IMG/VR virus record: IMGVR_UViG_3300042384_001374 | Location: 1-64,000 of that record | Strand: one strand, 5' to 3' | From: a virus | DNA: 64,000 bases | Part shown: positions 12,007 through 62,600 of the stretch, piece by piece | How positions within the stretch are numbered: position 1 is the stretch's first letter | How the letters are laid out: each line of letters starts with the position of its first letter | The notes under the pieces: model-generated | What the model was told of the DNA's origin: nothing | Database searches by the model: none | Seen by the model: the letters and a program-made list of their open reading frames with translations, nothing else | Made by a program: the position numbers and the translations under genes

Positions 12007-12036
12007 ATGGGTCGATTAACGGATCTGGCAAATAAT

Positions 12037-12294: not shown

Positions 12295-12440
12295 AAAAGG
12301 GTGGGGTTACTACCCATTGACAGCGGGAGTGCCACTGTCTTGCTGAATCTACGGAGAATGTCAAGAAATCCTGCATAGATGACGGATTTCCATTCTGGTG
12401 TAATGGGTAACATCTGCCTGATTTTAGCCGCAGCTAAAAC

Positions 12441-15338
12441 TCAACGCCGCATTTTGCTGCCGCAAGTAGTCGTCAAACCGATCTTCTGCTTCACTTTTTC
12501 CCAGCCCCGGTTGGCCATCTTGCTGACCTTCTTCACTTCCTCTGAACGAAAGCGTCCCTTAGTGACAGCCTTCTCCACCAACAACAGGAAGGCGTCAGCG
12601 CGGTCGGGCGATTTTTTCAGCCGCTTCTTCGCTTCGTCCTTACCCTCCACCCGCACGGTGCGGCCTTCCTTGGCGTGATACTCGCGCTCCACCAGCTCGG
12701 CCATCGTCTCAATTGACAATCCGCTGATCTGGTTGGAACGGATGAACTCGGCCGGTTGAATCCACAACTCTGAGTTTTTGTTGTAATAGGTGCAGTCTTC
12801 GTTGCGAAAAAGCACGGTGCGGTCGGACGCCTTGCCTTGGAAATTGACCTTCTGCACCGCAGGCGACCACTCCACGTCCACGATGTGCCCAAACGGAGTG
12901 CCCGCTCCGGTGTTGTCGTGGATGGCGTCGCACGGTTTTACTCCCATTTGGATGCCCATGTCCCGCCACTTGCGAATAATCTGGTAGCTGAGCGGGGTGG
13001 TCTTGTCGGTGATGTCGTCCTCGATGGTGGTTTCAAGGCAAACGTGCAGATGATCGCGGCCGTTTACCTTCCCAAGCTTGCCGAAAGCCGCTTGCGAACG
13101 GTCGCCGCCGCGTGAAAACGACGGGTCCAGCGATTCGAGAATTTCCGGATGCGTGTCCCACGCTGGTTCGATTTGGCTCAGGGCGCACGAAATGAGAAAC
13201 TCAGTTTCGGAGTAGATCGAATTGGCGGAACCGTCCGGGCACCAGAACGCCTTGACGAACCGGTAGTAACCCCGCGACTTCTTGCCGCCTCGTTGACCCG
13301 CAATGCGGTCGCAATACGCCTGATCCGGCTGCCAATGAAACTTGTGTCCATCCGGGTGGGTAATGCGCGGGCTTTCTTCAGCATTAAAGCGCACGCATTT
13401 GCCGTATTTGGTGCGCCAACGCATCTGGGATTCGTTCACCGACTTCCAGCCCTCGTCAGGTTCGCAGAGGTCGCCGAATGGATCGGTGAGCTTGTCCGGG
13501 TTGGCCATGCCTGCAAATGTCAAAGTTTCGTTGGAAATCAAGTTTTCGGAAGCAGTCTTAAGGATACCCGGATGCAGCTCGTTGAACTCGTCCGCCGCCA
13601 CAACCACCACCGGGTTCTTGATTCCGAGCAGCTCTTTGGATGCTTCCTCCCCGTCTGCTTTGCCCGCCGCCTTAAGCACGATGCCCGAGTTGCGCCACAG
13701 TTTGCCGTTGGCATCCACTCCCTTAATGTAGCCGTCCGAGTCAATGAGCTTGCCGGGACAACCCATGATGGACGCCTGCCCCCACAATTGAGTGAGCGAC
13801 TTCCAAACCCGCATTCGAGCGTCTTGTTTGGTGGTAGACATGATGATGAACCAAGTCTCAGACGGGCGACCCCAGTAGGCCATCAACCCGTAAAGAGCCA
13901 CCGCGTCGCTCTTGCCCGAGTTGTGATGAATTACCCCTTCCGCAAAGTAGTGCCCCTGAATTGGCACGGTCACATCGTAGAACTCGCAAATCCCAAGATT
14001 GGTGATTGACTCCACCTGTGGAAGTGAGACCATCAAATACGATGAAACATCAGAATAAAGGCTGGAGCAAGCATGTGGAACGGAATCAAAAAATTGCGGA
14101 TCTGTTCCGAGAGATGAAAAGCACCCGTCTGGTTGCTGACGAGGTTGGAATGTCGGTGAAAATGATTGGCTATATCCTGAACCGGCAGGGCATTCCGACA
14201 CCAAGGACTGGAATGCGCTGTAACCCTTACGCAGCTTGCGACCGAAACTCAGCGCTAGTGCTAAAAATGTGCTCCGAAAGCTCCACTCTGAACGAGATGG
14301 CGGAGGCAGTTGGAACCGTAGGGCGGGAGGTGAAGAAATTCCTTCGTCGGAATGGCGTGACAAAAGAGTTTCCAAAAGCTCCGCACACCGGAGATCGTCA
14401 TCACCAATGGAAGGGCCGGACGGTGGACAAGGACGGCTACATTCTGATTCATCACAAAGGTCATCCGAATGCGCGGAAGCACAGCCACTTTGTTCTGGAA
14501 CATCGTCTGGTGATGGAAAGCGCTCTAGGCAGGCATCTATTGCCAACTGAAGTCGTTCATCACCGCGATGGAAATAAGCAGAACAACCAGATTGAAAATC
14601 TCCAGTTGTTTGCAAGCAATGGAGAGCATCTTGAAGTGGACCTTGCTGGACGGTGCCCGAAATGGAGCGAGGAAGGGAAGGCTCGTATCCTAGAAGCGAC
14701 GCGCCAACGCTGGCTTCGCGAGCACGCTTCCAGCCGTCCGGAGTCAGAATTAAGTGGTCTCCAGTGCATTTGAACGATTTTCCATTGCTGAGCCGAAATT
14801 CAAACATCTCGGCCTTTCCTTTGAGGTAAGGAGTTTCGGCCAGCTCCGGACCATTCAGCGTCATAACCCACGGTCGCTCACCCGCATCAGAGAGTTCTTT
14901 GATCGTCGGTTCCTCCCATGTGGTCGGATCAAAAATCCGGGTGTCTCCTGAAACGCAAGACGAGCACCCGGCATAGCCGACAAAATTCTTCTCTCCCTTA
15001 TCGGTGATGCACTCGCGCAAAATCGTCTCGGTCCATTCGTTCCAGATAATACGCCTGATCGAGCCGGGGCAGTTGAACGACAGGTCGATGGCTCGGCGTA
15101 GGTAACGCCAGCGGTCGTCCTTGGTCGGCGGTGCACCCGTGCGAGAGCCTCCACGCCACTCAGCTTGGAAGCACATGAACAGACAGGCCGTCAGCTCGGA
15201 CGTTCCATTCGGAAAACCAGCCCCGTCCAACCAAACCGAGCCATCGGCATCAACTGTGTAAGGCGCAGGTTCAAAGAGCCCTTGCGGGCTGGGCGCTATC
15301 GCTGTGGTCATGCCTTCCACTACCAGACATTCAACCAA
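12441..15338 (-). CDS. terL: Terminase large subunit containing an intein
   Basis: Walker A is split by the intein (YAGCSS|SGKS). Also has Walker B VVVAADE, nuclease motif SLDPSFSRGGD and C-terminal KSPDRADA. Confidence 0.9.
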   Translation of the reverse strand: MVECLVVEGMTTAIAPSPQGLFEPAPYTVDADGSVWLDGAGFPNGTSELTACLFMCFQAEWRGGSRTGAPPTKDDRWRYLRRAIDLSFNCPGSIRRIIWNEWTETILRECITDKGEKNFVGYAGCSSCVSGDTRIFDPTTWEEPTIKELSDAGERPWVMTLNGPELAETPYLKGKAEMFEFRLSNGKSFKCTGDHLILTPDGWKRAREASVGASLLGYEPSLPRSISGTVQQGPLQDALHCLQTTGDFQSGCSAYFHRGDERLQLAIDACLERFPSPDDVPEQSGCASAHSDDLCDESECSRPCPPSGPSIGDDDLRCAELLETLLSRHSDEGISSPPALRFQLPPPSRSEWSFRSTFLALALSFGRKLRKGYSAFQSLVSECPAGSGYSQSFSPTFQPRQQPDGCFSSLGTDPQFFDSVPHACSSLYSDVSSYLMVSLPQVESITNLGICEFYDVTVPIQGHYFAEGVIHHNSGKSDAVALYGLMAYWGRPSETWFIIMSTTKQDARMRVWKSLTQLWGQASIMGCPGKLIDSDGYIKGVDANGKLWRNSGIVLKAAGKADGEEASKELLGIKNPVVVVAADEFNELHPGILKTASENLISNETLTFAGMANPDKLTDPFGDLCEPDEGWKSVNESQMRWRTKYGKCVRFNAEESPRITHPDGHKFHWQPDQAYCDRIAGQRGGKKSRGYYRFVKAFWCPDGSANSIYSETEFLISCALSQIEPAWDTHPEILESLDPSFSRGGDRSQAAFGKLGKVNGRDHLHVCLETTIEDDITDKTTPLSYQIIRKWRDMGIQMGVKPCDAIHDNTGAGTPFGHIVDVEWSPAVQKVNFQGKASDRTVLFRNEDCTYYNKNSELWIQPAEFIRSNQISGLSIETMAELVEREYHAKEGRTVRVEGKDEAKKRLKKSPDRADAFLLLVEKAVTKGRFRSEEVKKVSKMANRGWEKVKQKIGLTTTCGSKMRR
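13920..14957 (-). mobile_element. Intein (346 aa) inserted in the terminase Walker A motif
   Basis: N-terminus CVSGDTRI, block B KCTGDHLILTPDGW, C-terminus FYDVTVPIQGHYFAEGVIHHN followed by Ser +1. Confidence 0.93.
14042..14773 (+). CDS. HNH homing endonuclease encoded antisense inside the intein
   Basis: HQWKGRTVDKDGYILI..HP..VLEHRLVMESALGRHLLPTEVVHHRDGNKQNNQIENLQL is an HNH_3-type motif, preceded by two HTH-like segments. ATG 14042, 243 aa. Confidence 0.9.
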   Translation: MKHQNKGWSKHVERNQKIADLFREMKSTRLVADEVGMSVKMIGYILNRQGIPTPRTGMRCNPYAACDRNSALVLKMCSESSTLNEMAEAVGTVGREVKKFLRRNGVTKEFPKAPHTGDRHHQWKGRTVDKDGYILIHHKGHPNARKHSHFVLEHRLVMESALGRHLLPTEVVHHRDGNKQNNQIENLQLFASNGEHLEVDLAGRCPKWSEEGKARILEATRQRWLREHASSRPESELSGLQCI

Positions 15339-44754: not shown

Positions 44755-45150
44755 ATGACCAACACACCTACACTCGACCAACTCGAAGCCCTTGTCCTAG
44801 AATGGGGAAAAGCCAAAGGCATTCTCGAACACGCTACGCCAGAATCCCAGTTTCGCAAAACTCTGGAAGAGGTTCAAGAAATTGCAGACGGACTTGAATT
44901 TGGAATTGATGAAGAAATTCTGGATGGTATCGGAGACACGGGGGTAACTCTAATCTTGCTTGCCGCCCTTAAAGGCTGGACGTTCCGTCAGTGTCTTGCG
45001 CACGCCTACGGCATTATTTCCAAACGCACCGGACGAATGGTTGATGGAATGTTCGTGAAAGATGTTCCGTCAAGCGATGATGACCTTGGTGAACTAGACG
45101 CGTCCAAAGCTTGTCGTGTGGGTGATGAACCCTGCGAAAGCTGCCAATAA
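44755..45150 (+). CDS. MazG-like nucleotide pyrophosphohydrolase
   Basis: QFRKTLEEVQE...DGIGDTGVTL...AYGIISKRTGRMVDGMFVKD. Confidence 0.85.
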   Translation: MTNTPTLDQLEALVLEWGKAKGILEHATPESQFRKTLEEVQEIADGLEFGIDEEILDGIGDTGVTLILLAALKGWTFRQCLAHAYGIISKRTGRMVDGMFVKDVPSSDDDLGELDASKACRVGDEPCESCQ

Positions 45151-47268
45151 TTTTAGCCACGGCTAAACAAATCCCGTCCGTAAACAATCGGACAAATGAC
45201 CGAAGCGTGATTGCAAGCGCGTGACGGCAAGAAGCCTATATGGTAAGTGGCTCCCCATCTGCTCGGCGTGGTAACAACTGACCGGGCGCATTCTCCAGCC
45301 AACCCAACTCATAAGCGAACATTACATCGGCCGCGCCGCCGAAGCTGCCGCCCGAGCCCGTCACAACCGAATCCACAAACCAATGAAAAAGACCGCCAAG
45401 AAAAAGACCGCCGCCAAGAAAGTTCCAAGCAAGCAGGCCCGCGCCTTCTCGCAAGCCTTGGAGACATTCAAGAAGCCTGAGTCCCCAATCGAACTTCAGC
45501 ACGCGGAACACCTGCTTGTTCGTAAAATTGGTCAGGTGATAAAAGAACCGGCTGACAGCTTTGTGGATTTGCCTAATTCCGATCCAGTTCCAGAGCATGC
45601 CGAAAATTGGGAATCCGTGCCCAACTACGGCCCTTCCACCGAAGTGGACGAAGAAGCGATGGCTCGCGAGGTGTTGTTTGGCGAGATGCCAGTTTCTGAT
45701 GCTCATGCAGCAGCCGTAGAAGCGTCGCCGCCTAACCTTGGCCACATAGTGCCACAAACCACACCCGACGCGCCACAAACGCCCCTACACGACGAAAAGC
45801 TCGGACAAAACCTTAAACCATCCGAAACCACCGACGATCAACTCGACCCAGAGCAACTCGCCAACAACATTGAGCTGCTGATCGACTCGCTCAACTTCAT
45901 CCACGACCGGGGATGGCTGCGCAAAATGCAGGAAAAAGACATCCAAATCGTCAAAGCCCGCATTAAGTGCGGACGCAAAATTATCAGTCAACTCCGCAAC
46001 TAATTTTAGCCACGACTAAAATGGAAGAGATCAACCTTGCCGCGCCTAACCAGCAAAAAAAAAGCGGCTTTATTCTGCGTCCAACCCCGGACCCGGAACC
46101 TCCCGTCGTCGTTCCGTGCTGCCAATACGTTCTTACCGATACCCAAGAATACTCAGTATTCTGGAATCCTTTCAACAAAGTAGTGCAATGTCACAACTGT
46201 GGACACATCTGGACCCCGGAATCCATCAAGTGAGCAAAAAACCCAAAACCAAAAAAATCGGAGTCAAGGAACTGCTTGCGCTTTTAGGTGCTGATCCAAA
46301 CGAAGCTATCCCAACCGGACTGCGCGAAGCGGAATGGGCCACGCAATTAGAAGGCTGTGAACATGAGCCCGTCGGGCTTGGGAAATGCTCAACAACCAGC
46401 AAGGTAATGTTCTTGTCATTCTCTCAAGCCAAAGCCGCCAGCAAGCGCCGTCTCAAGCGCGGATCAAATGCCAACGCTTTCCGGATTTATCTGTGCCCGG
46501 ATTGTTCGCACTTTCACATGACCAGCCAAGTCAAACGCTCATGACTGAAACCCTACCACATAAAAAAGACGACCAAGACTTCATCGACAAACACGGCCGC
46601 AACCACACTTGCGAATGCGGTTTGACCAACATTTGGAGCCCACGTTTCGACATGTGGATGTGTTCCGGTAACCTCGCCAAATACAAAGCACTCTACAAAA
46701 ATTCCCTTGAAGTATGAATTCCATCTGCCACTACAAAGAAAACGAACAAGGATATTGGAATTCCGATTGCGGCAAAACATTTGACTCGATCACTTGGCAC
46801 GATTATGCCCGCGATTTTATTTGGTGTCCCTATTGCGGATCTGAAATGAATTCTGAAATGCACATGTCAAAACAAGACCTTAAAGAAGATCGCGGCGACC
46901 GGGCGCATCAAGAAAGGAAAGATGACGAAGAGTGAGCGCAAAAAAGAAAACAGCCCAGCACGTTTATGCGCTAAAAGTCAGCGAGATCCTAAAAAAGCTG
47001 GGAATCCCTGAGGCCAAACAAGACAAATTCGGAAATCCTTATATCAACCCGGAATATTTGACGCGCCTTCCAGTTACGGTAAAATCTGATTACCAGTCAA
47101 AAGATTGCCACCGGGTAATTTTCAAGCTTTATAAGCAATAGAAACAACCAAAAAACCCAAAATCATGACTACCATTGACATTGTAATTTTAATTTGGTCC
47201 GCCGTCATCGGCGTAATTTTCATTTTTTGGCATGTTTTTATCAGCGGGAGAAGGGGACGATAACTTTT

Positions 47269-47676
47269 ATGGAAAATACAATACAAAGCGAAGTAACGTT
47301 GCCATGCACGCCTAGTGATGCATTTAAAATGGTGGAATTCATTCGCCGATACAATAGGTGGAGGCGCGGCGACGAATCGCTTGAGATGGAATCACCGAAA
47401 GCCATTGGAGATGCCCTTGATGCTGTTTGCAGCTTTATAGAAACTCTAGAACGCGAGCAAGACGAATGGGTCGCCAAAGCGGTAGAGCTATGCGCCGAGC
47501 GGGAATCCAATGCCATGCAGGCGTTGGCGTATAAAGCCGAGCGGGACGAGGCGCGTGCAATGGCGCGTGACATGCGGAACCAGCTCGAAAAGGCATCAAC
47601 GGCCCGACTGCTCTTTCCTTCCGAGAACGCTGGGGGCCATGCGCCCGGAGTAAAAGATCAAGCCAATGAAAAGTAA
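47269..47676 (+). CDS. Hypothetical protein ending inside attC A
   Basis: Coiled-coil ORF; stop lies in the attC loop. Confidence 0.6.
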   Translation: MENTIQSEVTLPCTPSDAFKMVEFIRRYNRWRRGDESLEMESPKAIGDALDAVCSFIETLEREQDEWVAKAVELCAERESNAMQALAYKAERDEARAMARDMRNQLEKASTARLLFPSENAGGHAPGVKDQANEK

Positions 47677-48001
47677 CAGAAAAGCTTCTCCGGGTCGTAT
47701 GCGCTCCCTTGTTCGTCCGTGGCAGGAACTCGCGACCCATGCTGACAAAACAATCACGCCGACCGTGGGTGAGACGCTGGAATACCTCTGGGATGGCTAC
47801 CGTGGAGAGGGGCAATGGAGGTCATGCACGATCACACGGATTGATGAGGGGCAATCATGGACGCGACTCCATGCCCGAATGTATTGGGGTTTCGATCACG
47901 CGGATCGCCACCCACGCGAACAAATACTGCACCCACGGGCATTCCGTCGGACGAACGCTAGGGCTATGACGCCAGCAACTGAATCAGACCATGGAAAGTA
48001 A
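47666..48001 (+). CDS. Cassette ORF (hypothetical)
   Basis: Starts in attC A and ends in attC B. Confidence 0.6.
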   Translation: MKSNRKASPGRMRSLVRPWQELATHADKTITPTVGETLEYLWDGYRGEGQWRSCTITRIDEGQSWTRLHARMYWGFDHADRHPREQILHPRAFRRTNARAMTPATESDHGK

Positions 48002-48350
48002 CAGAAAAGCTATTGAGGGTCGGGCATCAGCCCCTTGTTCTCGGTCTTTTGATGACCTACTGGAGAGCTTGGACGCATGGATCGAGGACGCGCTAAAAGG
48101 CTCGAAGCCTATCGGACTAACGCTATCCCGCGCCCGCACCACCATCACCGATCAAAGGGATAGGATCGGGGAAATCTTCGATGCGTTGGAATGCCAGAAT
48201 AAGGAAGTGGAAAAGCTCCGCGCCGCCATCCGAAACCTCCGCGATGTAAAGGGACGCCATCATACGCAAATCGCCACGGAACAACTCTTCGCCCTTCTTC
48301 CCGAGAACGATGAGCCCATGCGCGGCGAAAATGGAACGAATATGAAATGA
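47991..48350 (+). CDS. Cassette ORF (hypothetical, coiled coil)
   Basis: Starts in attC B and ends in attC C. Confidence 0.6.
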   Translation: MESNRKAIEGRASAPCSRSFDDLLESLDAWIEDALKGSKPIGLTLSRARTTITDQRDRIGEIFDALECQNKEVEKLRAAIRNLRDVKGRHHTQIATEQLFALLPENDEPMRGENGTNMK

Positions 48351-48427
48351 AATTGAGGAGCTTCTGGCCGTCGAATGCGGCGGCTTGTTCTCTGAATCAG
48401 CCCGAATAACACGAACGACGACGATCA

Positions 48428-48637
48428 ATGAAAGACGAAGATATAGCCGATGCCGAAGCGCAAGGATTTGCTTCCCTCAAGTGGGACGCCGCCGAAAATC
48501 GAGATATCAAAACCGCCCTTGAAATGCAAAAGGCGGAAACGGAATCACTTTGCCGTCTGGCGAAGATGATTGAACAACCCGACCCGGAAGATCCAACGAA
48601 AGCCGCCGACTGGTGGAAACCTGAAACCGACCAATGA
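48428..48637 (+). CDS. Cassette ORF (hypothetical)
   Basis: 69 aa, coupled to the next ORF. Confidence 0.5.
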   Translation: MKDEDIADAEAQGFASLKWDAAENRDIKTALEMQKAETESLCRLAKMIEQPDPEDPTKAADWWKPETDQ

Positions 48638-49047
48638 AAAACAACCGCACGCAAAAAGAAGTGATCCAAGAACGCCAACGAAATGCCGGGTCCAATATCG
48701 CGGCGTATCTGCCAAAACCTCCTGGATCGTATGGAAACCCTTACGAACGGCAACAGACCGCAAACAAGCCGCAGCATCTACGTCCTGATTCGGAAGGCTG
48801 GTGGTGGAGGCTTTGTAAGGGCGAGTGGGAATGCGGCAAGGCTGAATACATCCAGTGGGAAGACGCTGGAGAACCCGAACAAGAGCGAGTATTAGCGTGG
48901 TCCCGTGGAGGATGTTACACGCGATGCGACCAAATCAACCTTCGCTTGGACTCTGGGACACGCTGGTTCAAAGCAACTCCGCCCATCTTGGATTCAGAGA
49001 ACACAACCAGCCCATCTACGGGCGCAACTGAAAAAGATCATGAGTGA
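48634..49047 (+). CDS. Cassette ORF (hypothetical)
   Basis: Ends in attC D. Confidence 0.55.
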   Translation: MKNNRTQKEVIQERQRNAGSNIAAYLPKPPGSYGNPYERQQTANKPQHLRPDSEGWWWRLCKGEWECGKAEYIQWEDAGEPEQERVLAWSRGGCYTRCDQINLRLDSGTRWFKATPPILDSENTTSPSTGATEKDHE

Positions 49048-49405
49048 GAAAATGGAAAGCGATAGCCCGTTAGATGCGGCGACTTGTTCGGCTCTTCTTG
49101 ATGCCTCGCTCGACCTGCTCGCCGGATGGTGCGATGCCGTGAAAAACGGCGGCACTGGGTGGGATGATTGGGACGGATGGTATAAAGACGCCTGCTATCG
49201 CCCCGGCCCGCTGCGCGAACTGATCGATGCTCGCATAGCGAAGATCGCCGCCGATGAATCTGAATGTCCGAGATGCCATGCAACGCGCACATATTACGAC
49301 GGGTGGAACTGTCCGACTGAAGGATGTGATTCTTTGCCGAACGCATCAGCGATGGCACCGCCGCCCCAGCGGCTGCCATCCACGAAGGACGTTCCCGGCG
49401 GTTGA
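49040..49405 (+). CDS. Cassette ORF with C-terminal Zn ribbon
   Basis: ATG 49040 lies in attC D; CPRC..CPTEGC; stop lies in attC E. Confidence 0.6.
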   Translation: MSEKMESDSPLDAATCSALLDASLDLLAGWCDAVKNGGTGWDDWDGWYKDACYRPGPLRELIDARIAKIAADESECPRCHATRTYYDGWNCPTEGCDSLPNASAMAPPPQRLPSTKDVPGG

Positions 49406-49448
49406 CCATCCGCGTCTTGTTCTGGGTCTTTTTGGGGGCGCGAAAAAA

Positions 49449-49500
49449 TATGAGAATCTCATAAAATAAATGTTGACCTTGTGCGAGAATCTCGTAATGT
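49449..49500 (+). promoter_or_regulatory. Sigma70 promoter overlapped by two palindromic operators
   Basis: TTGACC(49473)-16 nt-TAATGT; operators TATGAGA-A-TCTCATA (49449-49463) and CGAGA-A-TCTCG (49484-49494). Confidence 0.7.
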
Positions 49501-49546
49501 CTCCCCAGTTGCACGACGCAACGCCAACACCAAACCAAACACGAAA

Positions 49547-49819
49547 ATGAAAATCACCATCAGCCACGACCAAGACAGCATCGACCCATCCGCCACCTAC
49601 TCCGACGAGCAATTCGTGGAAGTCCGCAAGGCTCTCGAAGCCGAATACGAAAAGGCCATCCTCGCCGAATACCCCGAAGCCGAAATCGACTTCAGCGGCA
49701 CTGACACCACCTACGCGATCCGCGTAACCGGAACCGAAATGGATGACCCGAGCGAGATTGAGGAGAACGTGCAAAGCATCTGCGAAAGCGTCTTCGAAAC
49801 CGGAAACTTCTGGATCTAA
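49547..49819 (+). CDS. Small highly acidic protein (anti-defence/DNA-mimic candidate)
   Basis: 90 aa with 22 D/E versus 5 K/R. Confidence 0.6.
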   Translation: MKITISHDQDSIDPSATYSDEQFVEVRKALEAEYEKAILAEYPEAEIDFSGTDTTYAIRVTGTEMDDPSEIEENVQSICESVFETGNFWI

Positions 49820-50004
49820 TGTTCGCCGATCAACTCAAAGATGAGCGCAAACGCCTCGGCCTGACACAGGCCGGGGCGGATGCCGTCCTCGATACCTGTC
49901 GGGGACAGGTAGCCGCATGGGAAAGCGGACGCAACACGCCGCACGTCCTCACTCAGGAGGGAGCCTTGGCACGCCTCCGCAACCGGAAGACTCCGCGCAA
50001 ATGA
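49819..50004 (+). CDS. XRE/Cro-type HTH regulator (Aca-like context)
   Basis: LKDERKRLGLTQAGADAVLDTCRGQVAAWESGRNTP. Confidence 0.85.
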   Translation: MFADQLKDERKRLGLTQAGADAVLDTCRGQVAAWESGRNTPHVLTQEGALARLRNRKTPRK

Positions 50005-50079
50005 TTCTTCCCCAGAACGCAATAGGTGAGGCACGGGCGGACAACGCCAGCCCGCCACAAGATCAAAATCTCTAATCAC

Positions 50080-50379
50080 ATGGAAACTCCGAATCAAACC
50101 GACCCGCCCGTTGACCTCGACCGCCTTGTTCGTCCTTCTTGGTTCAAGGGGGACGCGGCTTGCGACTGGCATGAAGATGCTGGCCACGAGAACGGCAGCT
50201 ACTACTGCAAGTGCCTCGACTGCGATGCTGACTTCGTGGGGCATAAACGCCGCCACATCTGCCGCAAATGCCACTACGAAGCCAAGGCCAGATATGACGC
50301 TCTGACCCCCGAAAAACGGGCGGCATTTGATGAAAAACGAAACGCCGAAATCAGGGCATTCTTTGAGACGAACGCCTAG
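50080..50379 (+). CDS. Cassette ORF with Zn finger
   Basis: ATG lies in attC F; GSYYCKCLDCDADFVGHKRRHICRKC. Confidence 0.65.
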   Translation: METPNQTDPPVDLDRLVRPSWFKGDAACDWHEDAGHENGSYYCKCLDCDADFVGHKRRHICRKCHYEAKARYDALTPEKRAAFDEKRNAEIRAFFETNA

Positions 50380-50394
50380 CTCATGCACCCGCCC

Positions 50395-50640
50395 ATGAAA
50401 GACTCCGAATCAAACAAAGACGCTCCGGCGGGTTGCATGAAGCGACTTGTTCGTCCTCTTTATTCGATGCAGCGATGCAGGAAGGATAATTCCAGATACG
50501 GGAAAATCCACTTCGCGCATCATGAATTCGAAACGCTTTGTGGGCTGACTACGGATTCCGACTGGTGGGTTCTCACAAACAGGCATGACGGCGATGCGAC
50601 ATGCGCAAAATGTATTAAGACGAACAGCAGTTGTTCGTAG
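50395..50640 (+). CDS. Cassette ORF with His/Cys Zn-binding motif
   Basis: ATG lies in attC G; IHF...TLCG...ATCAKC. Confidence 0.6.
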   Translation: MKDSESNKDAPAGCMKRLVRPLYSMQRCRKDNSRYGKIHFAHHEFETLCGLTTDSDWWVLTNRHDGDATCAKCIKTNSSCS

Positions 50641-50699
50641 TGCCCGACCGCACGAATAATCAGCGAAGCAAATAATGAAATTTTAGTTGAGGCTAAAAC

Positions 50700-53600
50700 C
50701 TATTTGTTTTCTTTGCGAATCACCTCGCGCATTTCGGCGCGCTTTTCCGCTCTCGGCTCTCTGGCAAACGGAATAGCTTCAAATGTCAAATAGGTGGCCG
50801 CGTCCAGCAACGAAGCCGCCCGGTTGCGTTGCGCTTCCCTGCTCATCAAATATTGCGAAGTAAGGACGCCCGCTTCCAGCGCGTCGTGAGCCATAGCGGT
50901 AGGTGCGGTCAAGTCAGCCAGTGAACCGTGCCACGAGTCTTTGTAAGAGCGAATGGTAACACCGTTCTTGTCGTAGCTTCCAAAGCCTGCTTTAAGCTGT
51001 TTGCGATTAAACGTGTTGTTTAATCCAGCGGCTCCGGCAATTGCCATCGGGTTAGTGACGGTTTTCTGCACCAACCCGGAGACCGGTGCGTAACCCGCCA
51101 TTACCCCCAGCACTGGCACTGCTGTGGTTAGTTCCAGCAAGCTTCTGGAAGCAATTTCAGCAAATGCCGACGCCTGCGCCGCGTCTGCTTTTTTGGTCTG
51201 GTCAAACAATTCCCGTTTGTTGCCAAACGTGATGGTTTTAATGACTTCGCCGAGCATAGAGCTTTTTTTGTCCACGAACATCCACTCGTTGGCGAGTTTC
51301 TGAGCTTTTTTCTGGGCCTTGTCATCATCGTCGCCGCCTGCCAAAAAAAACAAATAAGACACCATTGGCACCAGCATTTGAAGCTTAAACGGGTAAAACA
51401 AAATGTTTTGGGTCAGTGAGGTGACCACGTTCTCCAGCGCCTCTTTCTTGGTTTCCGCGTCAGCCTTTTCATCAAACAAAATGGGCACCAAAACCGAAGT
51501 GTTGGACGCCATGCTCGACGTGTGATTGCTGAAGCGCACCATCGAACGCCACAGCGCGTTGCGGCCGGGCGAAGATGTCCGGTTCTGAAACATCCACGAT
51601 TTCTTGCTTTGGTCCGACTGAGCCATCACATCGTTCACCTTGCGCCGGGCGTTGCTCTTTGCCATCGCGGTGGGCTCGACGTTCGATTTGACCACGTCGG
51701 CCGGTTCCATCTTCATCTGGTCAGCCAGCTCGACAATGAACATCGCCGTGGACAAGTAGGACTCACCCTTGCCAATAGTCCAATGAAGCGCCTTCTCGCC
51801 GAGCTTTTCGTATTCCCGAAGCCCTTTGCCAGCAAGGTTCTTGGCCGTGCTTTTCCCAAACCTGACTTGGCTGTGCATGATGTCACGCGCCACATCCGCG
51901 CCGTCCGCCGAGCGGTAATACACCGAACGGTCGGTCTTGCGGACAAACTCCCGAGCCTGTTCATTGAATTTTCGGTCGGTGATCAGCTTTTGCAGGATGC
52001 TGAAGTATTGCGCTGCTTGCTTGCCCTTTCCAACCGCAATCTTGCCAGCGGCATACCCTACTGAAGGGCCTGTCGTCTGGTTCCAAACTTGTTGAAGGCT
52101 CGCCAAAGCCCGGACTATGTACAACGATCCGAGAAAGCGCATTGCTTCCGCGCCACCCGTGTTGCTCACTCCGTTGGCAGCGTCGTTTTGGAGGATCGTC
52201 TCGTTTTCTTCCGCGATGGCGGAAAGAGCTTGGCGAAACTTTTTAATCTCGTCCTCAGCTTCCTGCTTGGCTTTGCGCTGGGCCGGATCGTTCCAGTCGA
52301 TGTCGTCAGGAATCATCTCGTTCGCTTTATTGAGAAAGTCACCGTCTTTGATGGTGTTCACGCCGTGCTCATCCTGCACCACGCGGCCGAGTGAACGCCG
52401 CAGCACCTCGTAAGTCGGAGTGACGTTCAGCTTATAGATAGCGTCGTCCAAAAGCGAAAGCGGCGCGGTAAGTCCGTTCAATGAAATCGGACGGAACGGA
52501 TTGCGGGAGTTGAAGTAGCCACCCTTGCCGTAGCCGCCGAAGAACGACGAGTCCTTCAACGACACCATGTCGATGGGGTCGGCGATGAAGCGGTCGGAAC
52601 TGACCTGCTGCTCTGCCGGGTCGGGGCGTGCCGCGTAACCAACACGCAGCGGCACGGACGAATAGGTAATCTTGAATGCCTCCTTAGCGTCGTCCCGCCA
52701 CGACTCGCCCGTCACCATGCGCTCGCCCTTCAGCAACTCGCCCGGCTGCTTGTCCACCGCCGCATCCTGCGACAACATCGCCATGGTAAGCTGCATCGCG
52801 CTACTGATGTCGGCAAACGACCTGTTGAGCTGCTGGGCATATCCTTCGACCGCAGCCTCGTTACCCAGAGTGACTTTCGATTCAAGCAGTGCAATGAATT
52901 TGTCCGTCAGCTCTTTCGCTATTTCCGGCGAGCTAATGATGGTATTCGAAATGCCGGATTCCAGCATCCATCCGCGAACTTCCCGAGCCAGTTCCAAATC
53001 ACGGATCATGTCGAGATTATCCGCGTTCCAGTAGCGGTTCAGTTTTGGAATTACTTTGCCGGTCGGAATAGGATTTTTGTTCGCATCCAAAACAGCCTTG
53101 CCATCCGGGCCTTTTACCAGCTCGCCAAAATACAATCCTTGCGCCCGATTCAGGTTTTCCAACTCGTTCAGTCCACGCCCGATGTCGGTAACCAAGCGGT
53201 TGGTCGCCGTCTCGCGGTGCATTCCGAATGCTGTGTCGATGCCTCGGAACACCGAAATGAGGTAGCCGATGGTTTGGTCTTTGGCGTTATTACCAATCGG
53301 CTTGGCCGCCTTGACGATCTTTTCCTCCTCCGCTTTTTTGGAAGTCTCATAGCCTTGGCGTCCGCTGGTGCCGTCGATGCCATATTCGATGAAGTCTTGC
53401 AAATGGATAGCGGCTTGGCGGGCAGCGAAGTTGCGGCGGAACTTGCTACGAATGCGAGCGTCTTGGTGATGCAAGAATTTCAAGGCTCCCAATTCCAGAG
53501 CATGCTTCTTGCCGTCAAACGATACAAAATCAGTAATCAGGCACTTCTGGATTTCTATTGCTTCAATTTCGGCGAACGCCAGCGAAAACACCGGCTCCAC

Positions 53601-56600
53601 CCGGAAAGCAAGCATCCGGCTGACATCCATGTCCTTGACTGAAGATCCGCCCACTTTGGCGAACTCGCCCGAATCAATCGACTTCAACAAGGTTTTGATC
53701 TTAGCCTTGGTGCTGTCGCTAAGCCGGGTGTCGCCGTGCGCGATGACCAACCGTTCGATCATGTAACCAAATTGGTCGAGCTGCTTCTTAGACACGTCGC
53801 CAGTCAGGTCGGCGGTGCGTTTTGCACCAGTAACCGAACTCATCGCGTCGTCCAGCCATGTCTGCATGCCTTTCCGCCAGTCGTCCGAAAATGCCTTAGC
53901 GGCTTCACCTTTTTTCAGGTTTTGTTTAGCCGGACTAAAATCAGCGCCGTCAAAATCCTTGCCAACTTCTTTTTCAGTTCCGGCAAGGAAGTAAGAATAA
54001 GACCCTTGCGCTGGCACACCTTGATTGACTGGCAGTGCATCAAGGATAATGCGCTCCATCTCACGGTTGACGTTGCGCTTGGTAATCTTTGGAAAGTGCT
54101 GCATCAACAACTCGCGGGCGTTGAGCGGCATCATGATCACCTTCTCGCCCTCTTGGTTGATGAGAACACCCAGCTTTTCCTTCCGGAGCTGGTGACTCTT
54201 TGGCAGGTTGATTTGTTTGACGCGGTTTTGGGCGGTGCGGGTCAGGGTGAGTGCCTCTTCCGGGTCGGACAGGTAGGCTGCGGCGTCGGCCGTCATGCCC
54301 TTGTATTGCGCTTCCTGCGCGTCGGAGTGGGCGTCCTGCATCACCTCTTTGACAATTTGCTCCTCAAGCTGCACCAAGTCCACCGCTTGGTTGATGGCTT
54401 TGAGTGGGTCAAAGTTCATGAATTGGTCGCGAGAGCCCCGAACAAACTTGTAGGCGTCCTCAATGCGGTTTTCAGACTGCTCAGTAAGAGCTGTAATGAC
54501 GGCTTTCTGTCGTATCCAGTAGTCTCTGCGGGACATAGTGCCAGACGGCTCGCTTGAAGCGCTTGCAGGTGCCTGAACGTCGTCAGAAACAGGCGGCAAG
54601 GGGTTTGTCAGTGTCAGCTGTGCTTTGTATGTCACTTTTTCGTCGATTGCCTTGGTCAATAAACCTCCAGACTGATCGTTTTTTTGACCCTGCGACGCCC
54701 GCCCCGAATAATAACCCATCCCCACTGGCACTTTGCCTTTGTTGCTGTCGATGACGGACAGTTCGTTGCGAGTCTGCTCCAGTTCGCGCTCCACCCGTCC
54801 GAGGTAAATGGCAGCTTCCTTACGGCCCTGTTCCTGCTCCACGCTGCGGGCCTTACTGGAAAGCAGCGCCCGTGCTTGGTTGGTAGTCAAAGCGATGTCT
54901 TGAAGGGCTCTTTGAAGATCCACTCCAATCAAAACCTGTTGTTTTTGAGTGGATAAATTCTCAAAATTGCGAGCAGCACGAAAGATTTCATCAATTGATT
55001 GTTCAGGATCAGAAACAAAACCTTCGTTACTATCCAGCAACTTGTTAATTTCCTCGTCGATAAACGCGGGCAAGTCAATGGTTTCGTTCTTCATCAACTC
55101 CTCTGACACCATCCGCATGAACGCGTTGGTCTGCATCTTTGGTTTAGCCCCGGCCGTCACCCCTTGGGTAATCTCACGGACCATGTTGTCCATAAACCCT
55201 TGGGCAAACTTGCGGCCGTTGAGCATTCCAGACAGCGAGTTCATTACGTCGGTTTGTTCCTGACGCGTGAAATCGTCGGTTTCCTTGAATGTTTTTAAAC
55301 GGAACCCGCTCAGATTCGCTTTTTTCGGGTCCACCCCGGTCCAGCGCATCACTTGACGGGCGTGCATCTCGGCGTGCGAGTTGAAGATGGAAACGTGCAG
55401 GTTGAACAAACGGGCAGCGTCGCTGATGCGGCTGTTGATGCCTTGCGTGTCGCCCTGTGGCAGCTCGTTGTTCTCGTCCGGAGTGAGCAGGGTGTTGCGT
55501 TCGCGGACCAGCGCGCCGATGGCGTTGGCTTGTTTGTAAAGCCCGTCCACCGCCGCTTTGAGCTGCGGGTTGTTTTCCATGCCCTCGGTGAGCATCAAAT
55601 GCACGACATGCCCAAGATTCGCCGCATTACCGGAATCATCTTTCATCATTTCCGCAAAACGGGTGACGTGCGCCACCACCATGTCCCGAGTCTCCGCTTT
55701 CAGAGATTCGGACCAGTCTTTAGCCGTGGCTAAAAGGTTTGCACCTTCCGGGCTGTTGTCCAACAACTCCTGAAACGCCTGACCATTATCCGCTTCGTAA
55801 GCGCCGATCTCCGCCAGCAGCGCCTCGCGCAGCTCGTTCAGGCGAGTTTGGTTCTTTTCCAGCGTGTCGAGCGACAGCTTGGCTTCCAGCTCCGCTGCAT
55901 CCAGCACGCCAGCAGGCAGCGCCATCCGAATCGACTCCATCATCGCGTCGTCCAACGGCAAATTTACATCCACAAGCCCAAACCCGGACGCATCGGCATC
56001 CTTTGAAAACTTAGAAATGGCCTTTTTCACAACCGCAGCACCCACCAGCGTCCGCACCGCAGGCGCACGCAGCAACAATGAACTGTTGGTCGAGTCGATG
56101 TTTCTTTTTTGAAACGCGATGTTCTGTGACGTGCGACCGCTCACCTTTGGGATAGTCAGGTTGCGCATCTCACCGACATACATTTTGGTTGCCGCTTTCA
56201 GTCCTTTTTCAACGTTGCCTTGCAATGCTGGTCCCGCTACCGCAATGCGGAGCTTGTCAGTGCTGATGCCTTGGCCGGTCGGGTCAAGCGGGGCGCTCAG
56301 GATGTCGCTGGTCGTGCGTTCGTTGGAAGGAGCCATCGGGAATACCCCGCCAGCCGCTTTGCCCTGCTCTATGATGCGGGCAAGCCCGTTGAACAGGAAC
56401 GCGTCGGACGGATTGAGCCCGTTGCCTTGAAGCTCCTTGGCCAAGCGCTTGTTGATGCGCGGCGCGTCAGGACCAAAGCGGTTGGCTTTGCGGTCGTCGT
56501 CAAATTTTGTAGACTGGCGTCGGCCTTCCATTATTTCCTGAAGTTCTTCAAATGTCTTCGCTTCTTTGAGTGCTTCAATCTCCGGAGCGTCCGGGGTGCT

Positions 56601-59600
56601 ATCATACCAGTTATAATTGTCGGATTCCTCCTCGTCCAACGTGACCGATTCTTCGGTGGCGCGGTCCACATGATCTTGATCGTGCTCTTGAGCGCCTGTG
56701 TTGGCCCGCAGGATGTTGCGGATGCCTTCCTGAAGCGCCAGCTCTACCGGCTCGGCCAGCAAAGTGTCGGCAAAGCCGTCCACTCCGATGTAAACCTTGT
56801 CGAACAACTCTTTGGCTTTCGGGTTAGTCAGCACTTCGGCGACAATCAGAATGTCAGACGCCGTCGATTGGTCGTCGCCAAACATGTTGATGAGAGCCCC
56901 GCCGTCACCATCCAAGCGCAGCGTGCGTCCAAGCTCAGCCACGTCAGACAAGTGTCCAGACGGGTCCGCCGCAATCGACTCGGGGAAGACGGCCGGGTCA
57001 AGCGACAGCCGGATGATCCGCGCCATCTCCGCAACCTGCCCGCGCACCGCTTCGTTCTTCGACGCGATCTTGAGCGACTGGGCGATGCCGCCGAAGCTCT
57101 CGGTGGCGTTTTTGTCCGGATTCTTCTGGCTACTTGGCGAATACACCACGTTTGGTCCGCCATCCGTTCCGGGGAAAATTTTGAAGCCAACATCATCCAA
57201 CCCGTAGCGAGTCACTTGGCTGTCCTTCGGCGACACGACCAACGTCTCGCCCGGAAACGTCTGGATGAGCTGTGACAAAATCGGGTTGCCGATGCCGTCG
57301 ATGCCGTGGACCAGCATCGAGGCGTCATACACCATCACCTCGTCGTTGCTGGTCATGCTGCCCTTCAACATCCGGGCAATGGCATCAGACTCTTCTGGCG
57401 AAGCCATTGAATTGGTCTGCAAAGAACTTTTTGCCACTTTGCGATATTTTTTAACATCGCGTTTGACGGGTTTTTTCGGTGTTCCCTGCTTGACCTGCTC
57501 CAAGTAATGTTTTGAGTCAAAACGCTCACCCGCGCCATTTTCCAATGACCAGAATTTACTTCCCGATCCTTCAACGTAAGAAAGAATGGTATTGGATGAC
57601 TTTCCTTGCCATCCCTCACCACGATACGCCCATTGATAACCATTTTTGGCATTCGGAATTTTAGGCAGTCGGGAAAATAACAATTCCTCATCAACCGTTT
57701 CATTCACAATGAACTCTTCATCCGTTTCCACGTTTCCGCCAGAATACTTGGGAGGGTTTACACCCGGATTGTTAATGGTTCCGTTCGTATCCACGATTTC
57801 CTCAACCCGGCCAGCAGCCAGTTTAACCACAGCAAGCGCTCGGCCGATCTTGTGGCCCGCCTTAGCTTCTTCAACGATGGTCGCCTCAAACGACTGCTTA
57901 AGTTCCAACAAGCTCACTAGCACCGTCTCAACCGATGGGGTTTGCCCAGTCAAGTTGGATAGCTCTTTTTCCATTTCATCGTAGAACGCTTCCGGATTGC
58001 TCATGCTTTTGGCCAGCGGGAATGTGCCCCGGATGCCCTTGCGGACGAGCTGGCGTTGTTCGTCGCGGCTTTTGTGGTCGTTCTCCATTGCCCACAGGTC
58101 AAACAGGAAGGCACGTCCAGCGTCGATGTCGAGCGTGTCGCCGTTGCTCTGCGAACCAATCATCAAAGCGGCTCCGGTAAGCGCCATGCGGCGTTGGTTT
58201 TCGGGTCCAGCAGCTTGGTCGATGGCCACTTCGGCAGCCGTCTTCACGCGGTCACCGTCCAACGACTCCATCATGGATTGAACCGTTTCCGAACGATTAG
58301 TGCGCTTGTCGTCATCAAACACATTCGGGTCAGTAATGTTGCCCGTTTTGTTGTAGATCATCGGCATAACGCCTTCGCCCCGATTGGAACGGTTGATCAT
58401 CTCCAGAAGCTCAAAGGCGAAGTTGGAACCAAACACGTAGTCGCGCTGTTTTTCGTGGAACTTCATCAGCCACGAGAGGTTCGACAGGATGCGAGCGTCA
58501 ATCGGAGCATCGCGCAGGCGCTCAAGCTCCGCATTGTCTCCCGTGTAGGAAGCTTCCCGCTGCCAGCGTGATCCCTCGAACGCCACGTTGTCACGCCATT
58601 GCTGGTCGCGAAATTCTATCAGTGCCTTGTTGGTGAGGCGGGCCGCGTCGTTCGCACCATCCAAACGGGCACGCACGTTTACGATCATCCCGTCGAACAA
58701 CTCGGCTGCCACCACTCCGTGGTCTTTTGTAAGAACCATCTGCAAGTCGTCCAGCAAGCGGATCAGGCCGTTGGTTTCCGTCTCCCCGCCGATCTGACGC
58801 AGGAATGCCTTGTTGTTGAACTGACTTTCAATGAGCCCCTTCACCCGGCCCGCCAGTGTCTGTTTGCCGCCAAGCTCGGTGATAAGCGGCGCGAAGCCAT
58901 CGGCAATATCCTCCTTCGGCTGGCTGACCAATGCGACAGTTTCCTTGGCCCATGCTTCCATTTGGGAGACGTGCGCGATAAGCGCTTTGCGGGCTGGCTG
59001 GTTCTTGTCACCCTTGCCCTTGGCGAGCTTCTGCGCTTCGTTGGACGCTTTGAACACAAGGTCGTTGAACATCTTTACGTCCGCCGTGCGGAACGCGTTG
59101 GCGGCGCGATAGCGGTCAGCCCCGATCTCCGAATTAGTGTCCTTGGGCAAGGCAAAGCCCCCGGTGTGCCAGTAGGTGTCCGCTTCCTTGGTGTCACCAA
59201 TCTTGCCGTCCACCCAGTCCACGAAGAATTGGAGCCACTGCATGCGCCCGGCATAGGCGGCGTTGCTGTTGCCAGCAATTTCAATAACGGCACGCTCTTG
59301 GTTGTCCATCACCTGATCCGGAGTCAACGGGTCCATCCCCTTGCCTTCTTCATACCAATGCAGCTTTGGACGGAATCCGAGATAGCGGCCGGTGTCTTCA
59401 AAGCGCACGCCAAACGTATCGTTCTTGTTGCTAGACGGCGCGATGCTCGGTGCGGACAAGTTGTCCAATGCGGACGGGCTTGAGATGCTAGTCGGGAAGC
59501 TCAGGCCCTCACCGCGCCCTGTGCGAGCTTCGCGGTTCAGGTCGCGCATGCCCAAGCCAAATTCTTTCGGCCGCGTCCACACGTCCCCAAACGCAAGACG

Positions 59601-62600
59601 CTGAAGGTTCTGGATCGAGCCGTTGTAAGTGTCCAGCGCTTCCTTAAACTGCATAAATTTTGACATCCGTTGAGACGACAAAGGAACTTCCGGGACATCC
59701 CATTGAACCGAAAAAGATTTGGCTTCAGCCTCCGAAGCGCTGCGACGTGCATCCGCAAGTTCAGTTTCGAGAATTTGTAATTGGTCGGCAACTTTAACCA
59801 TAGGCAACATCACATCATCAGATGTTGAAATAAGCGGCTCTGCCGTTCGTCCCATGTATGATGAATGCTGCTCCAAGTTGACAGAGCGTTCCAAAACCCG
59901 AGCTTTCAAACGCTTCATGATGGTCGTCACGTCATTCGGGTTGATGCCTTCACGGTCAAATGGATTCTCCAATCGAAACCTTTTAGCCGTGGCTAAAATC
60001 GAACGACGCCCAATGTTCGTGCGCGGGTCCATCGCATTGATCAAAGTTTGATCGCGTCCAGCTTGCTTCAAGCGAAGCATCGCCATCTTTCCTTCAATCG
60101 CCCGGACACGTTGTTTGTGCATGACGGAAAGCTGGCGGTAATCTTCAGCCTGCTGTTCTTTCGGCACCGTGTTGTCGATGTGCTGACGGATGCGGGACAG
60201 CGTCTTGCCCGCATCAGGACCACCCAGCTCCAATGCCGGTGTGATGTCAAAGTCCATTGCCGCCATCCGTGCCTCCATTACCTGACGGTTGAGAAACACC
60301 AAAGTCTTGGCCCGCTCAAAACCAGTTTGATCAGCTGACAAATCCGATTTTTCGTCGTTGATGTCGGCCAACAGCGCGTCAATGCGCTGCATCGCGGCGG
60401 ACGTTCCCGAGTCGTCCAAAGCAAAATCGGCGACGTACTTCTCAAGGTAGTCTTTGATGATCGGTTTCAGGCTCATCGCCAGCGTCTCGCCGTCGATGTC
60501 GAACACGCTCTCGAACTTGGTGTTGGGGAACTGGTCCACGATTTGGCGCAACTCCGTCACCGCTTGGAAGTGCTCGGCGGTGATTTTGTTGCCCCACTTC
60601 AAGTGGGCCTCGGTGCCTTCGCGCTGCATCTCCAGCGTGCGCTCCAAAGCATCTTCCCGAGCGAAGTTCACGTCCCCTTGCACGCCAGCCTGACGGTATG
60701 CTTGATCCAAGCGGAACAACATCTGTTGCTGGCTTTGCGGGAGCTGACCGATGGTCCAGCGCATCGCGAGGATGTTCTTAATCCGGTCGGAGTAGCGTTT
60801 CACCAACGCGGCCACCGTGTTAACCAGCTTGCCGATCTTGCCAGTCTCGTCCGCGTCCATGTTGATGGACCCTTGCAGCCACTGGCTTTCGTTGCGCACC
60901 GCACGTTCAGTGTAAGAGCCGCTATGACGAAGCTGGTGCAGTTTGCGGATCAGTTCCGCCGCTACCGCGTAGTCTGCGCCCTTGACGAATTTCAGACCCT
61001 TAGCCTTGTCTTTTTCCTTCGGGTCCACTGAACGGCCGGGGTAGCGTTCCGCAGCCGTCTCAACCAGCAGTTTGTAAAATGGATGTTCCGGATTCTTGGC
61101 GATGTCCTTGTAGAGCTGTTCCAGTTCGGCGTCCTCAAAAACGTCCTTGGTGAGCAGGTGGAGCGTTTCTTCGTCCACCCAGTAAGCCAAGACCCGCGCC
61201 ACATCGGCGGCAAGGATGTTTTTGGCCAAATCAGACGACATGTTCACCCCGGCGTATTGTTGGCGAAGTTGCTCCTTCAACTTACTGAAGTCCACCTCGA
61301 TGCGGTTGGTCTGCAAATTGGCCCTTAAGAAAGAAGCTCCTTCTTTAGACAAATCCAGCTCTGCCACTTTGTTTTTAAAGTTGGGCGATACCACATCCAT
61401 CACGCCGCTCAATGCCGAACGAACTTGTGAGACAGTAACGCTTCCATTGGCGATACCGGGAAGCAGCGGCTTGATCAGTTTCGCCGCTTCCGTAAGCCGG
61501 GTCTTGTTCCACTGGATGTTGCGCACCCCTTGGTTAAGCGTGCGCAGCGAAAGTCCTTCCGGCGACAGGCTGACTTTGCGGAACGTCCACTTGCCGTTCT
61601 TCGCAGAGTCGAGCACGAGAATGGAATCGGGCTCACCTTGGATCAGGACAGTCTGCCCCACTTTCACCGAGAGCGTCTGGCCCTTTGGGGCCTTGTAGGT
61701 GTAAACGATCTTCTCCCCCATGCCGTCCTGCACCGCGTTCTCCTTGGCGCGTTCCTGCTCGCTCTGCTCCTGCATGTTGACCCGCTCCCACTTGCCGCCA
61801 GCCTCGTCGGTCTGGCTCTGCTCGATGGTGTCGGACGCGACGATCAGAGCGCCCTCCGGGTCTACTGCGTCAATCGCGGAGCCCTCAAATTTTTCATCAG
61901 ACACTTTGAGCGCATCCAGTTTGGCAATGGATGAATTGTTCTTCCTTTTCCTTCTTGGAAGACGCCGTTTGCCTTGACTTCTGTTTTGCGCTAACTGGCC
62001 ATTCATTCCAAACGACCTGTATCCAAGCACCCGAGTTTTTGGAAACGCAGCGACATTTACCGAATCTTCGGAATTACCACTAAGCAAAATGACGTGGGTT
62101 GATGTTTCGCCAAGAACAAAGCCCGTATGTCCGCCCCAACCATTTTTCCCGCCAGTGGCCGGATTGTTGTTCCAAAGGACCGCAACGTCACCGTAAGATG
62201 GAGATGTGGTTTTTTCACCCATATTCAAAAACGCTCTGGCTGAGAAGTTTTTAACGGACGACCCACCCTGTCTCAGTGACCATGATGTGAATGCGGTGCA
62301 CCATGGGAAAGTGGAAGGGCTCTGAGAAACGCCCAAGCTGACCAGCATCGACTTAATTCGAGATGAACTTTTCTCTTTTTCGTTAAGCAATGCGGCCCCG
62401 GCATTCACCGAAGGATCACTTCCCTGACGCAACCACCACTTGCTGATTTTTCCGGGCAAGACAATCGCGTCATCCGGCCCGAATTCATTGCTTGATGCGA
62501 TAAAGTTCTCGGTGGATTCAAGACTTGGCCCCACATTAGTCGTCTTTGTCTCCACCTCAACCAATGGCGCGGGAATATCAATGCTGACGATGGACGGAAA

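Follow-up and report, generated by a model that had tools for sequence, protein, structure and literature searches.

Why do the start and stop codons of a run of small phage genes lie inside structured DNA repeats, and what are these repeats? The question is raised by the first 64 kb (hereafter the window) of the IMG/VR virus record IMGVR_UViG_3300042384_001374, a genome of 76,099 bp that has direct terminal repeats and is rated complete. Between 47.2 and 50.6 kb, at the end of a + strand gene block and adjoining the 3′ end of a 4407-aa − strand open reading frame (ORF), there are eleven small ORFs (ORF1 to ORF11) that are mostly ORFans, the others encoding a DinI-like protein, an XRE-type helix-turn-helix (HTH) protein and a zinc-ribbon protein (phrog_10481). 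Seven structured repeats, A to G, are found among them (window 47622-50455), all on the + strand; a blastn search of 47000-51000 against GenBank phages gave no match. We consider it likely that the repeats are attC sites of the integron type, that the loop of each provides a cassette with its own start codon while stop codon and C-terminal tail come from the neighboring cassette, and that the AAC crossover triplet is held in a standard frame so that any cassette order terminates.

The repeats share a common plan. On the 5′ side, a GAAC(G/A) box is followed by 4-6 unpaired nt, a 3-bp stem, a 6-bp stem and a 4-7-bp GC stem that carries the terminal loop (32-63 nt in A-G, 29-83 nt across the wider site set). 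On the return arm, the GC stem is followed by an invariant extrahelical T and the 6-bp stem by a further extrahelical base (C, G or A), and 4 unpaired nt then lead to the TGTTC 3′ box, for a site length of 83-117 nt. E and F have a third bulge, an A. A strict structural descriptor run over both strands of the 76-kb genome returned A and C-G only, missing the degenerate B, whereas a covariance model (R1) trained on 18 sites from this and other phages, with B, E and F left out, identified precisely A-G on the + strand of the 64-kb window and, besides these, a single marginal match (E=0.09); all three held-out sites were thus recovered. Over the 18 aligned sites, paired cells amounted to 96.3%; shuffling lowered this to 76.7%, and sliding the partner columns to 27-46%. 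Compensatory double changes were seen at 11 of the 13 stem pairs, and the GAAC and GTTC boxes were invariant in every site and paired in 100% of cells. The stems are nearly all Watson-Crick (497 of 512 pairs), which fits a DNA hairpin that either strand can form. The descriptor demands the extrahelical T, which is therefore present in all 33 sites that pass it; the T is also an invariant column in the unfiltered MAFFT alignment of the seven sites of the window. Other approaches were less informative: an energy-only scan for GAAC...GTTC hairpins was unspecific, with similar match numbers on each strand, and was replaced by the descriptor and the covariance model, and misaligned loops in the raw MAFFT alignment left RNAalifold with a poor consensus.

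This architecture corresponds to that of the attC bottom strand. According to Nivina et al. (2016, PMC5027507), that strand has AAC in R′, with the crossover between A and C, while the opposite arm bears the extrahelical bases: the first occupies position 16, and a conserved T is found at 23/24, beyond an intervening 6-bp stem. The central spacer measures 5-6 nt. Counting with a 7-nt R″ box, the extrahelical bases of the phage sites are at 16 and 23/24, the stem between them is 6 bp (6 bp plus the third bulge in E and F), and the unpaired spacer is 4-6 nt long on its 5′ side, its 3′ side consisting of 4 nt and the T, so that the geometry of A-G agrees with every structural rule of the attC bottom strand that we draw from that paper. 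As in the integron sites treated there, each phage site folds as a single strand in which AAC and GTT form the R box, followed by an unpaired spacer, an L box and a terminal loop that varies. Also as in integrons, the genes of the arrays are small and mostly unknown, cassette limits fall at AAC in several comparisons though not in all, and in other contigs sites of the same type have IntI beside them.

An enzyme that could act on the sites was sought in the phage itself. The tyrosine recombinase profile PF00589 had no match in the complete 76,099-bp genome, and a Y1 (IS200-type) transposase, sought as a partner for the hairpins, was not found in the phage either. With seven attC-type sites and no integron integrase in the complete genome, the array of the window is a cluster of attC sites lacking integron integrases (CALIN). 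A pattern derived from the sites was used to retrieve further viral contigs, and in 6 of the 15 site-bearing phage contigs a tyrosine recombinase is encoded 0.1-2 kb from the sites. Against TIGR02249 (integron integrase, cut-off 265), the recombinases of the loci L090 and L067 score 344 and 281 bits; at both loci sites of the same type lie upstream of the integrase gene, the site strand is the intI coding strand, as in canonical integrons, and genes also start within the site loops. L067 (positions 9601-14003 of the 36.7-kb viral contig IMGVR_UViG_3300020048_000345) is a complete integron on a viral contig. Along its site strand come an array of sites (five seen), a cassette with a DNA methyltransferase gene, a GAAC|AGT junction and, in the same orientation, intI; attC bottom strand, attI and intI are related in this way in canonical integrons. 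Beyond intI, L067 continues with nuclease-like and helicase-like genes, the very ones found directly after the intI-less arrays of loci L012-L017; this makes the window array the CALIN of a family that elsewhere forms complete phage-borne integrons. In addition, G009, a genome that encodes IntI, has a tail-fibre-like gene in common with the window phage, with segments of up to 88% amino-acid identity (match at window 1976-3731; ORF 2531-4723, − strand, with a collagen repeat), the two genomes being otherwise unrelated; the two may therefore meet in the same host. Relatives of ORF10 in bacterial genomes match only its zinc-ribbon core and indicate no host, and no site was found in four metagenome-assembled genomes that encode such zinc-ribbon relatives.

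We then turn to the codons. An earlier note, made from the letters of the window alone, had placed start codons in or next to the attC loops, and all six of the ATGs concerned do lie in loops, at 47666 (A), 47991 (B), 48347 (C), 49040 (D), 50080 (F) and 50395 (G); also as described there, the reading continues across the 3′ box as LVR in A, F and G and as CS in B, C and D. The same note stated that upstream ORFs usually end inside the next attC. This stands in general, and for the stops ending at 47676, 48001, 48350 and 49047 the position is indeed in the loops of A-D, but the stop ending at 49405 is in the 3′ arm of E rather than in its loop, that ending at 50379 is within G but 4 nt past its 5′ box, and ORF9, upstream of F, departs from the rule with its own stop 10 nt before GAAC. 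Strings reported as common to several loops were found again, one of 21 nt in A and B and one of 14 nt in F and G; the latter is read in two different frames and hence is conserved as DNA, not as peptide. Site C, too, launches the 20-codon ORF that had been proposed. Layout was counted over 33 non-redundant sites from this phage plus the fetched loci, with starts scored in 27 non-redundant sites. An in-frame ATG is present in the loop of 16 of the 27, in the 5′ arm of three, and in none of the remaining eight sites; the upstream stop lies −7 to +8 nt from the loop ATG in 12 of the 16, four of these being ATGA overlaps. Loops of the window that hold a start are 40-54% A, compared with 24% genome-wide, and the startless loop of E is 19% A. 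On reading the sequence, no Shine-Dalgarno motif was seen before the loop ATGs.

The frame in which ORFs leave a cassette is more constant still than the place where they end. In 26 sites an upstream frame stays open over 60 codons or more, and in 24 of these the upstream ORF reads the crossover triplet AAC as an Asn codon; the two exceptions have TAAC boxes in which TAA is itself the stop. When stops were counted in all three frames of each site, as the earlier note had suggested, the AAC frame was closed within the site in 33/33 cases and the other two frames in 26/33 and 15/33. At the 3′ box, on the other hand, downstream ORFs are split 13/8/6 among the three frames. A frame that is fixed between cassettes and free inside a cassette is what a cassette model predicts, and we could conceive of no other cause.

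Comparison with relatives from other loci shows that the segments between crossover points have been exchanged as modules. In protein alignments of ORF10 homologues (n=27), similarity begins at ...RLVRP, encoded at the 3′ box of F, and ends at ...F(E/R/Q)TN, at the 5′ box of G; in those of ORF7 homologues (n=14) it extends from CS|ALLD to ...PN| (LPN| in ORF7). Outside these limits leaders and C-terminal tails are unrelated, even between proteins with bodies 85-94% identical, so that homology stops at the N(AAC) codon and tails vary, as had been anticipated; C-terminal tails conserved whatever the neighbor were not seen. Three mutually unrelated proteins (P0040-P0042) even end in the identical 20 residues N|ASAMAPPPQRLPSTKDVPGG, the tail encoded by attC E, from which it follows that this tail belongs to the downstream cassette. 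The homology limits and the attC E tail both support the proposal that the start comes with the cassette itself, whereas its stop and C-terminal tail are taken from its neighbor. At the nucleotide level, the DNA of L012-L017 matches window 50013-50377, a stretch comprising hairpin F and the ORF body as far as the 5′ box of G, and L018 and L019 diverge exactly before TAACG.

All these phage arrays have their genes on the bottom strand and the attC at the 5′ end of the ORF, unlike the canonical cassette, with its top-strand ORF and the attC at the 3′ end. Judged from the sequence, the phage + strand would be the recombinogenic attC bottom strand, and the genes, being on the same strand, would be arranged as the mirror image of bacterial cassettes. 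That the + strand is the coding one is indicated by the comparison of ORF10 with its L012 copy, where 21 of the 25 nucleotide differences are at third codon positions and the ORF10 body is under purifying selection in the + frame; in addition, the domain matches (DinI-like, HTH, zinc-ribbon) are on the + strand, and L067 and L090 have their methyltransferase cassettes on the site strand. Because the genes are on the bottom strand, the attC precedes the gene, is translated, and carries the gene's own start and the neighbor's stop. R1 also has matches in 9 of 151 sampled Bacteroidota genomes, and in one locus (L098; genome G084, contig 18) the matches at 621-692 and 1501-1572 are on the strand opposite the ORFs, each ORF being followed by a site, which is the canonical layout; boxes are TCTAAC...GTTAGC and loops are short. 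Cassettes in the opposite orientation have never been observed according to PMC5027507.

Sites, layout, fixed frame, modular exchange and neighbor-dependent tails as observed here suggest how such an array could work. Read along the + strand, a cassette would consist of the C of AAC, the 5′ arm of the hairpin, the A-rich loop bearing the ATG, the 3′ arm, the GTTC box and the ORF body up to ...GAA. At the crossover point the ORF would read an in-frame Asn codon, to which its own cassette contributes AA and the neighbor C, and would run into the 5′ arm or loop of the neighbor until an in-frame stop; any order of cassettes would then give terminated proteins, the last 1-20 residues of which would be set by the neighboring cassette. 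A ribosome finishing the upstream gene would have melted the hairpin and could restart at the adjacent ATG, usually only a few bases away. The loop ATGs are presumed to be the true N-termini, genes may be coupled in translation by re-initiation at the adjacent loop ATG, and recombination is presumably carried out by IntI acting in trans, supplied by the host or by a co-infecting IntI-carrying phage. With somewhat less assurance than for the sites and their codons, we favor a wider interpretation, in which an environmental phage lineage, probably of Bacteroidota phages, has its own mirror-image integron, with some members encoding IntI, and uses the site as a standard translation plug (neighbor's stop, own start, re-initiation) with a frame-locked Asn junction. 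If so, accessory genes could be swapped between phages without intergenic signals. Integrons are generally viewed as promoterless cassettes downstream of a Pc promoter with the attC behind the gene, whereas the phage arrays, some with IntI, have the opposite polarity and have turned the recombination site into coding sequence with a fixed frame at the crossover. This would explain how tiny accessory genes, the cassette genes including DinI-like, HTH and methyltransferase ones, are shuffled within a tightly packed, translationally linked operon. The layout predicts neighbor-dependent protein C-termini and amounts to a natural design for modular gene assembly.

Several observations weigh against this interpretation. 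The phage boxes read GAGAAC, ACGAAC or CCGAAC with GTTCGTC or GTTCTCN, so that their fit to the RYYYAAC/GTTRRRY consensus is limited to AAC/GTT, and the first extrahelical base is mostly C (28 of 33 sites, with G in three and A in two), where integron attC sites have G. Tyrosine recombinase genes are missing from the window phage and from its 79.5-kb relative G001, so recombination here would need an enzyme in trans. Of the starts and stops, eight of the 27 sites have no ATG at all, E is startless and ORF9 stops before F, and distant relatives of ORF10 have been called from a Met downstream of the box (MTG...). Breakpoints do not all coincide with the crossover point either: L018 and L019 match the window only from the 3′ box of F onward, and L012 and L014 diverge from each other at the edge of a loop, implying that exchange has not been purely at AA|C. 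In L012, moreover, a second F-type loop plus 3′ arm (1755-1849; 82% identical to window 50038-50132) stands before a different ORF, with its 5′ arm decayed and the hairpin no longer formable. Together with the breaks away from AAC, this copy indicates that decay and other kinds of recombination also occur.

The main rival, which we hold to be unlikely though far from negligible, accepts the attC sites and mirrored cassettes as real but sees the placement of starts and stops as a passive by-product, with no selected coupling or module function: the loop alone is free of pairing constraint and is A/T-rich, so stops and ATGs gather there. By our estimate about 70% of random frames would meet a stop within ~27 codons, and the eight of 27 sites without an ATG, the four of 16 sites with stop-ATG distances of 18-49 nt, and the leader peptides, which are not conserved in amino acids between the window and L012, are all in keeping with such passivity. 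However, drift alone would not be expected to fix the crossover frame in all but two of 26 sites or to close that frame in every site against 15-26 of 33 for the other frames; moreover, in 10 of 16 cases the stop overlaps the ATG or comes right after it (+1 to +8 nt), and a loop without a start, that of E, is not A-rich. 

A more radical alternative would confine the hairpins to the RNA level, as processing sites, attenuators or start presenters, and would ascribe modularity to homologous recombination at the short boxes, in the manner of the promoter early stem-loop (PeSL) elements of T4-like phages. The absence of an integrase from the phage, the location of all sites on the coding strand and the breakpoints away from AAC could be so explained, but we find the idea very improbable, since the geometry matches attC position for position, the same type of site adjoins TIGR02249 integron integrases in canonical polarity, R1 also matches canonical Bacteroidota cassette arrays, and the stems are almost wholly Watson-Crick. 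Furthermore, an Rfam search of 45000-51000 matched no family, a sigma-70 scan found promoter-like sites no more often than in shuffles and none inside a site, and a terminator scan gave no terminator-like signal marking the sites, which have no T-run terminator. RNase III-type processing sites were considered separately and rejected: after a cut in the 3′ arm the ATG would no longer be joined to its ORF, and the structure is better accounted for by the association with IntI. Just as doubtful, in our opinion, is that the + strand ORFs or their starts have been mis-called, the true genes being on the opposite strand or starting downstream of the 3′ box. Long antisense ORFs do exist (e.g. 49816-50388 and 49038-49538), and some distant ORF10 homologues, called from an internal Met just past the box, would suit late starts. 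Yet the third-position bias in the + frame, the strand of the DinI-like, HTH and zinc-ribbon matches and that of the L067 and L090 methyltransferase cassettes all speak for the genes as called, and in ORF10 no in-frame ATG, GTG or TTG is available between the loop ATG and the conserved body. 

Phage CALINs as such are not new, having been reported in virulent phages by Qi et al. (2023, PMC9892861). Like those, the present array belongs to a virulent-type genome and has at least two attC sites, no intI, and unknown or anti-defence-like cassettes; DNA methyltransferase cassettes occur in arrays related to that of the window. Unlike those, its site family includes a complete phage integron, with the intI of L067, and section 3.4 of that paper makes no mention of starts and stops in attC, a fixed crossing frame or reversed polarity. 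Compared with integrons in general, the phage differs in having genes on the bottom strand, a crossover triplet that is an in-frame Asn codon, and GAGAAC/ACGAAC boxes with GTTC. PeSL elements, which combine an early promoter with a terminator stem-loop and act via homologous recombination (Arbiol et al. 2010, PMC2839356; Comeau et al. 2014, PMC4122927), offer another parallel, as they too are structured elements flanking small ORFans in a plastic region and join an expression signal to a role in gene shuffling, but the phage sites show neither a promoter nor a terminator signal and are translated, and their geometry is that of attC, with IntI as partner. Fused integron cassettes, finally, also have frames crossing junctions and initiation that depends on recombination-site sequence (PMC4670013); however, they are described there as rare accidents through attC loss, whereas in the phage crossing of the junction is the rule and is frame-locked. 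In the full-text literature searched, mostly judged by title or abstract, we found no description of start codons in attC loops, of a frame-locked crossover or of bottom-strand cassettes.

The array itself can be followed from left to right, all features being on the + strand. ORF1 (135 aa; 47269..47676) reads SEN across the 5′ box of attC A and ends in its loop (stop 47674-47676). Site A (47622..47717; 63.7 bits) has its GAACG 5′ box at 47625, its loop at 47651-47687 and its TGTTC 3′ box at 47710, and from this loop ORF2 (111 aa; 47666..48001) reads RTN across the 5′ box of B to stop in the B loop (47999-48001). Site B (47950..48043) is a degenerate copy with a weak middle stem (28.3 bits, outside the training set). 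ORF3 (119 aa; 47991..48350) starts in the B loop and ends in that of C (48302..48393; loop 48327-48366; 80 bits), where its stop (48348-48350) forms an ATGA overlap with the ATG of ORF4. The cassette of site C is almost empty, consisting of the hairpin plus 26 nt, and the 20-codon ORF4 (48347..48409) ends 18 nt before the ATG of ORF5; our guess is that it may merely ferry ribosomes over an empty cassette. An orphan 5′ box, ACGAACG (48412-48418), begins 3 nt past ORF4 and together with the loop-like GATCAATG at the start region of ORF5 (48412..48430), which has no hairpin arms, is probably the remnant of a site. ORF5 (69 aa) and ORF6 (137 aa), which span 48428..49047, have an ATGA overlap with each other at 48634, and ORF6, which gives SEN at the 5′ box of D, stops in the loop of that site (49045-49047).

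Site D (48996..49092; loop 49024-49064; 74.8 bits) in turn contains the ATG of ORF7 (121 aa; 49040..49405), whose 20-residue tail is encoded by E, with the stop (49403-49405) in the 3′ arm. Site E (49336..49425; 29.8 bits, held out) has three extrahelical bases, a C-rich loop and no start codon. The next two genes, ORF8 (DinI-like, 90 aa) and ORF9 (XRE-type HTH, 61 aa; 49819-50004), occupy 49547..50004 and form a cassette with its own start and stop codons, an exception within the array. Between E and these genes, a direct repeat GAGAATCTC(A/G)TAA occurs twice, 33 nt apart (window 49452-49497), and may be a candidate operator pair for the HTH protein. Site F (50012..50134; 27.8 bits, held out) again has three extrahelical bases, and its 63-nt loop (50041-50103) launches ORF10 (99 aa; 50080..50379), which stops at 50377-50379, just past the 5′ box of G. 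From the loop of G (50367..50455; loop 50394-50426; 73.1 bits) ORF11 (81 aa; 50395..50640) runs to the end of the array, a bare box pair without interior, ACGAACA-GCAGT-TGTTCGT (50620..50638), and the junction there, GAAC|AG, resembles the one beside intI in L067 and L092.

Some features elsewhere in the window deserve mention. Upstream of the array, within the ORF at 45383-46003, there is a 15-nt inverted repeat (45423-45525) whose 3′ arm ends in CCTGCTTGTTCG, read as LLVR; this is a lone 3′-box-like motif, with no GAAC partner and no match to the covariance model. The 4407-aa ORF beside the array (50700-63923, − strand) had no phmmer match to PDB sequences, and its C-terminal 500 aa had no close relative among viral contigs. 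A 965-aa ORF at 12444-15338 (− strand) contains an intein splicing domain (PF14890) at residues 144-473.

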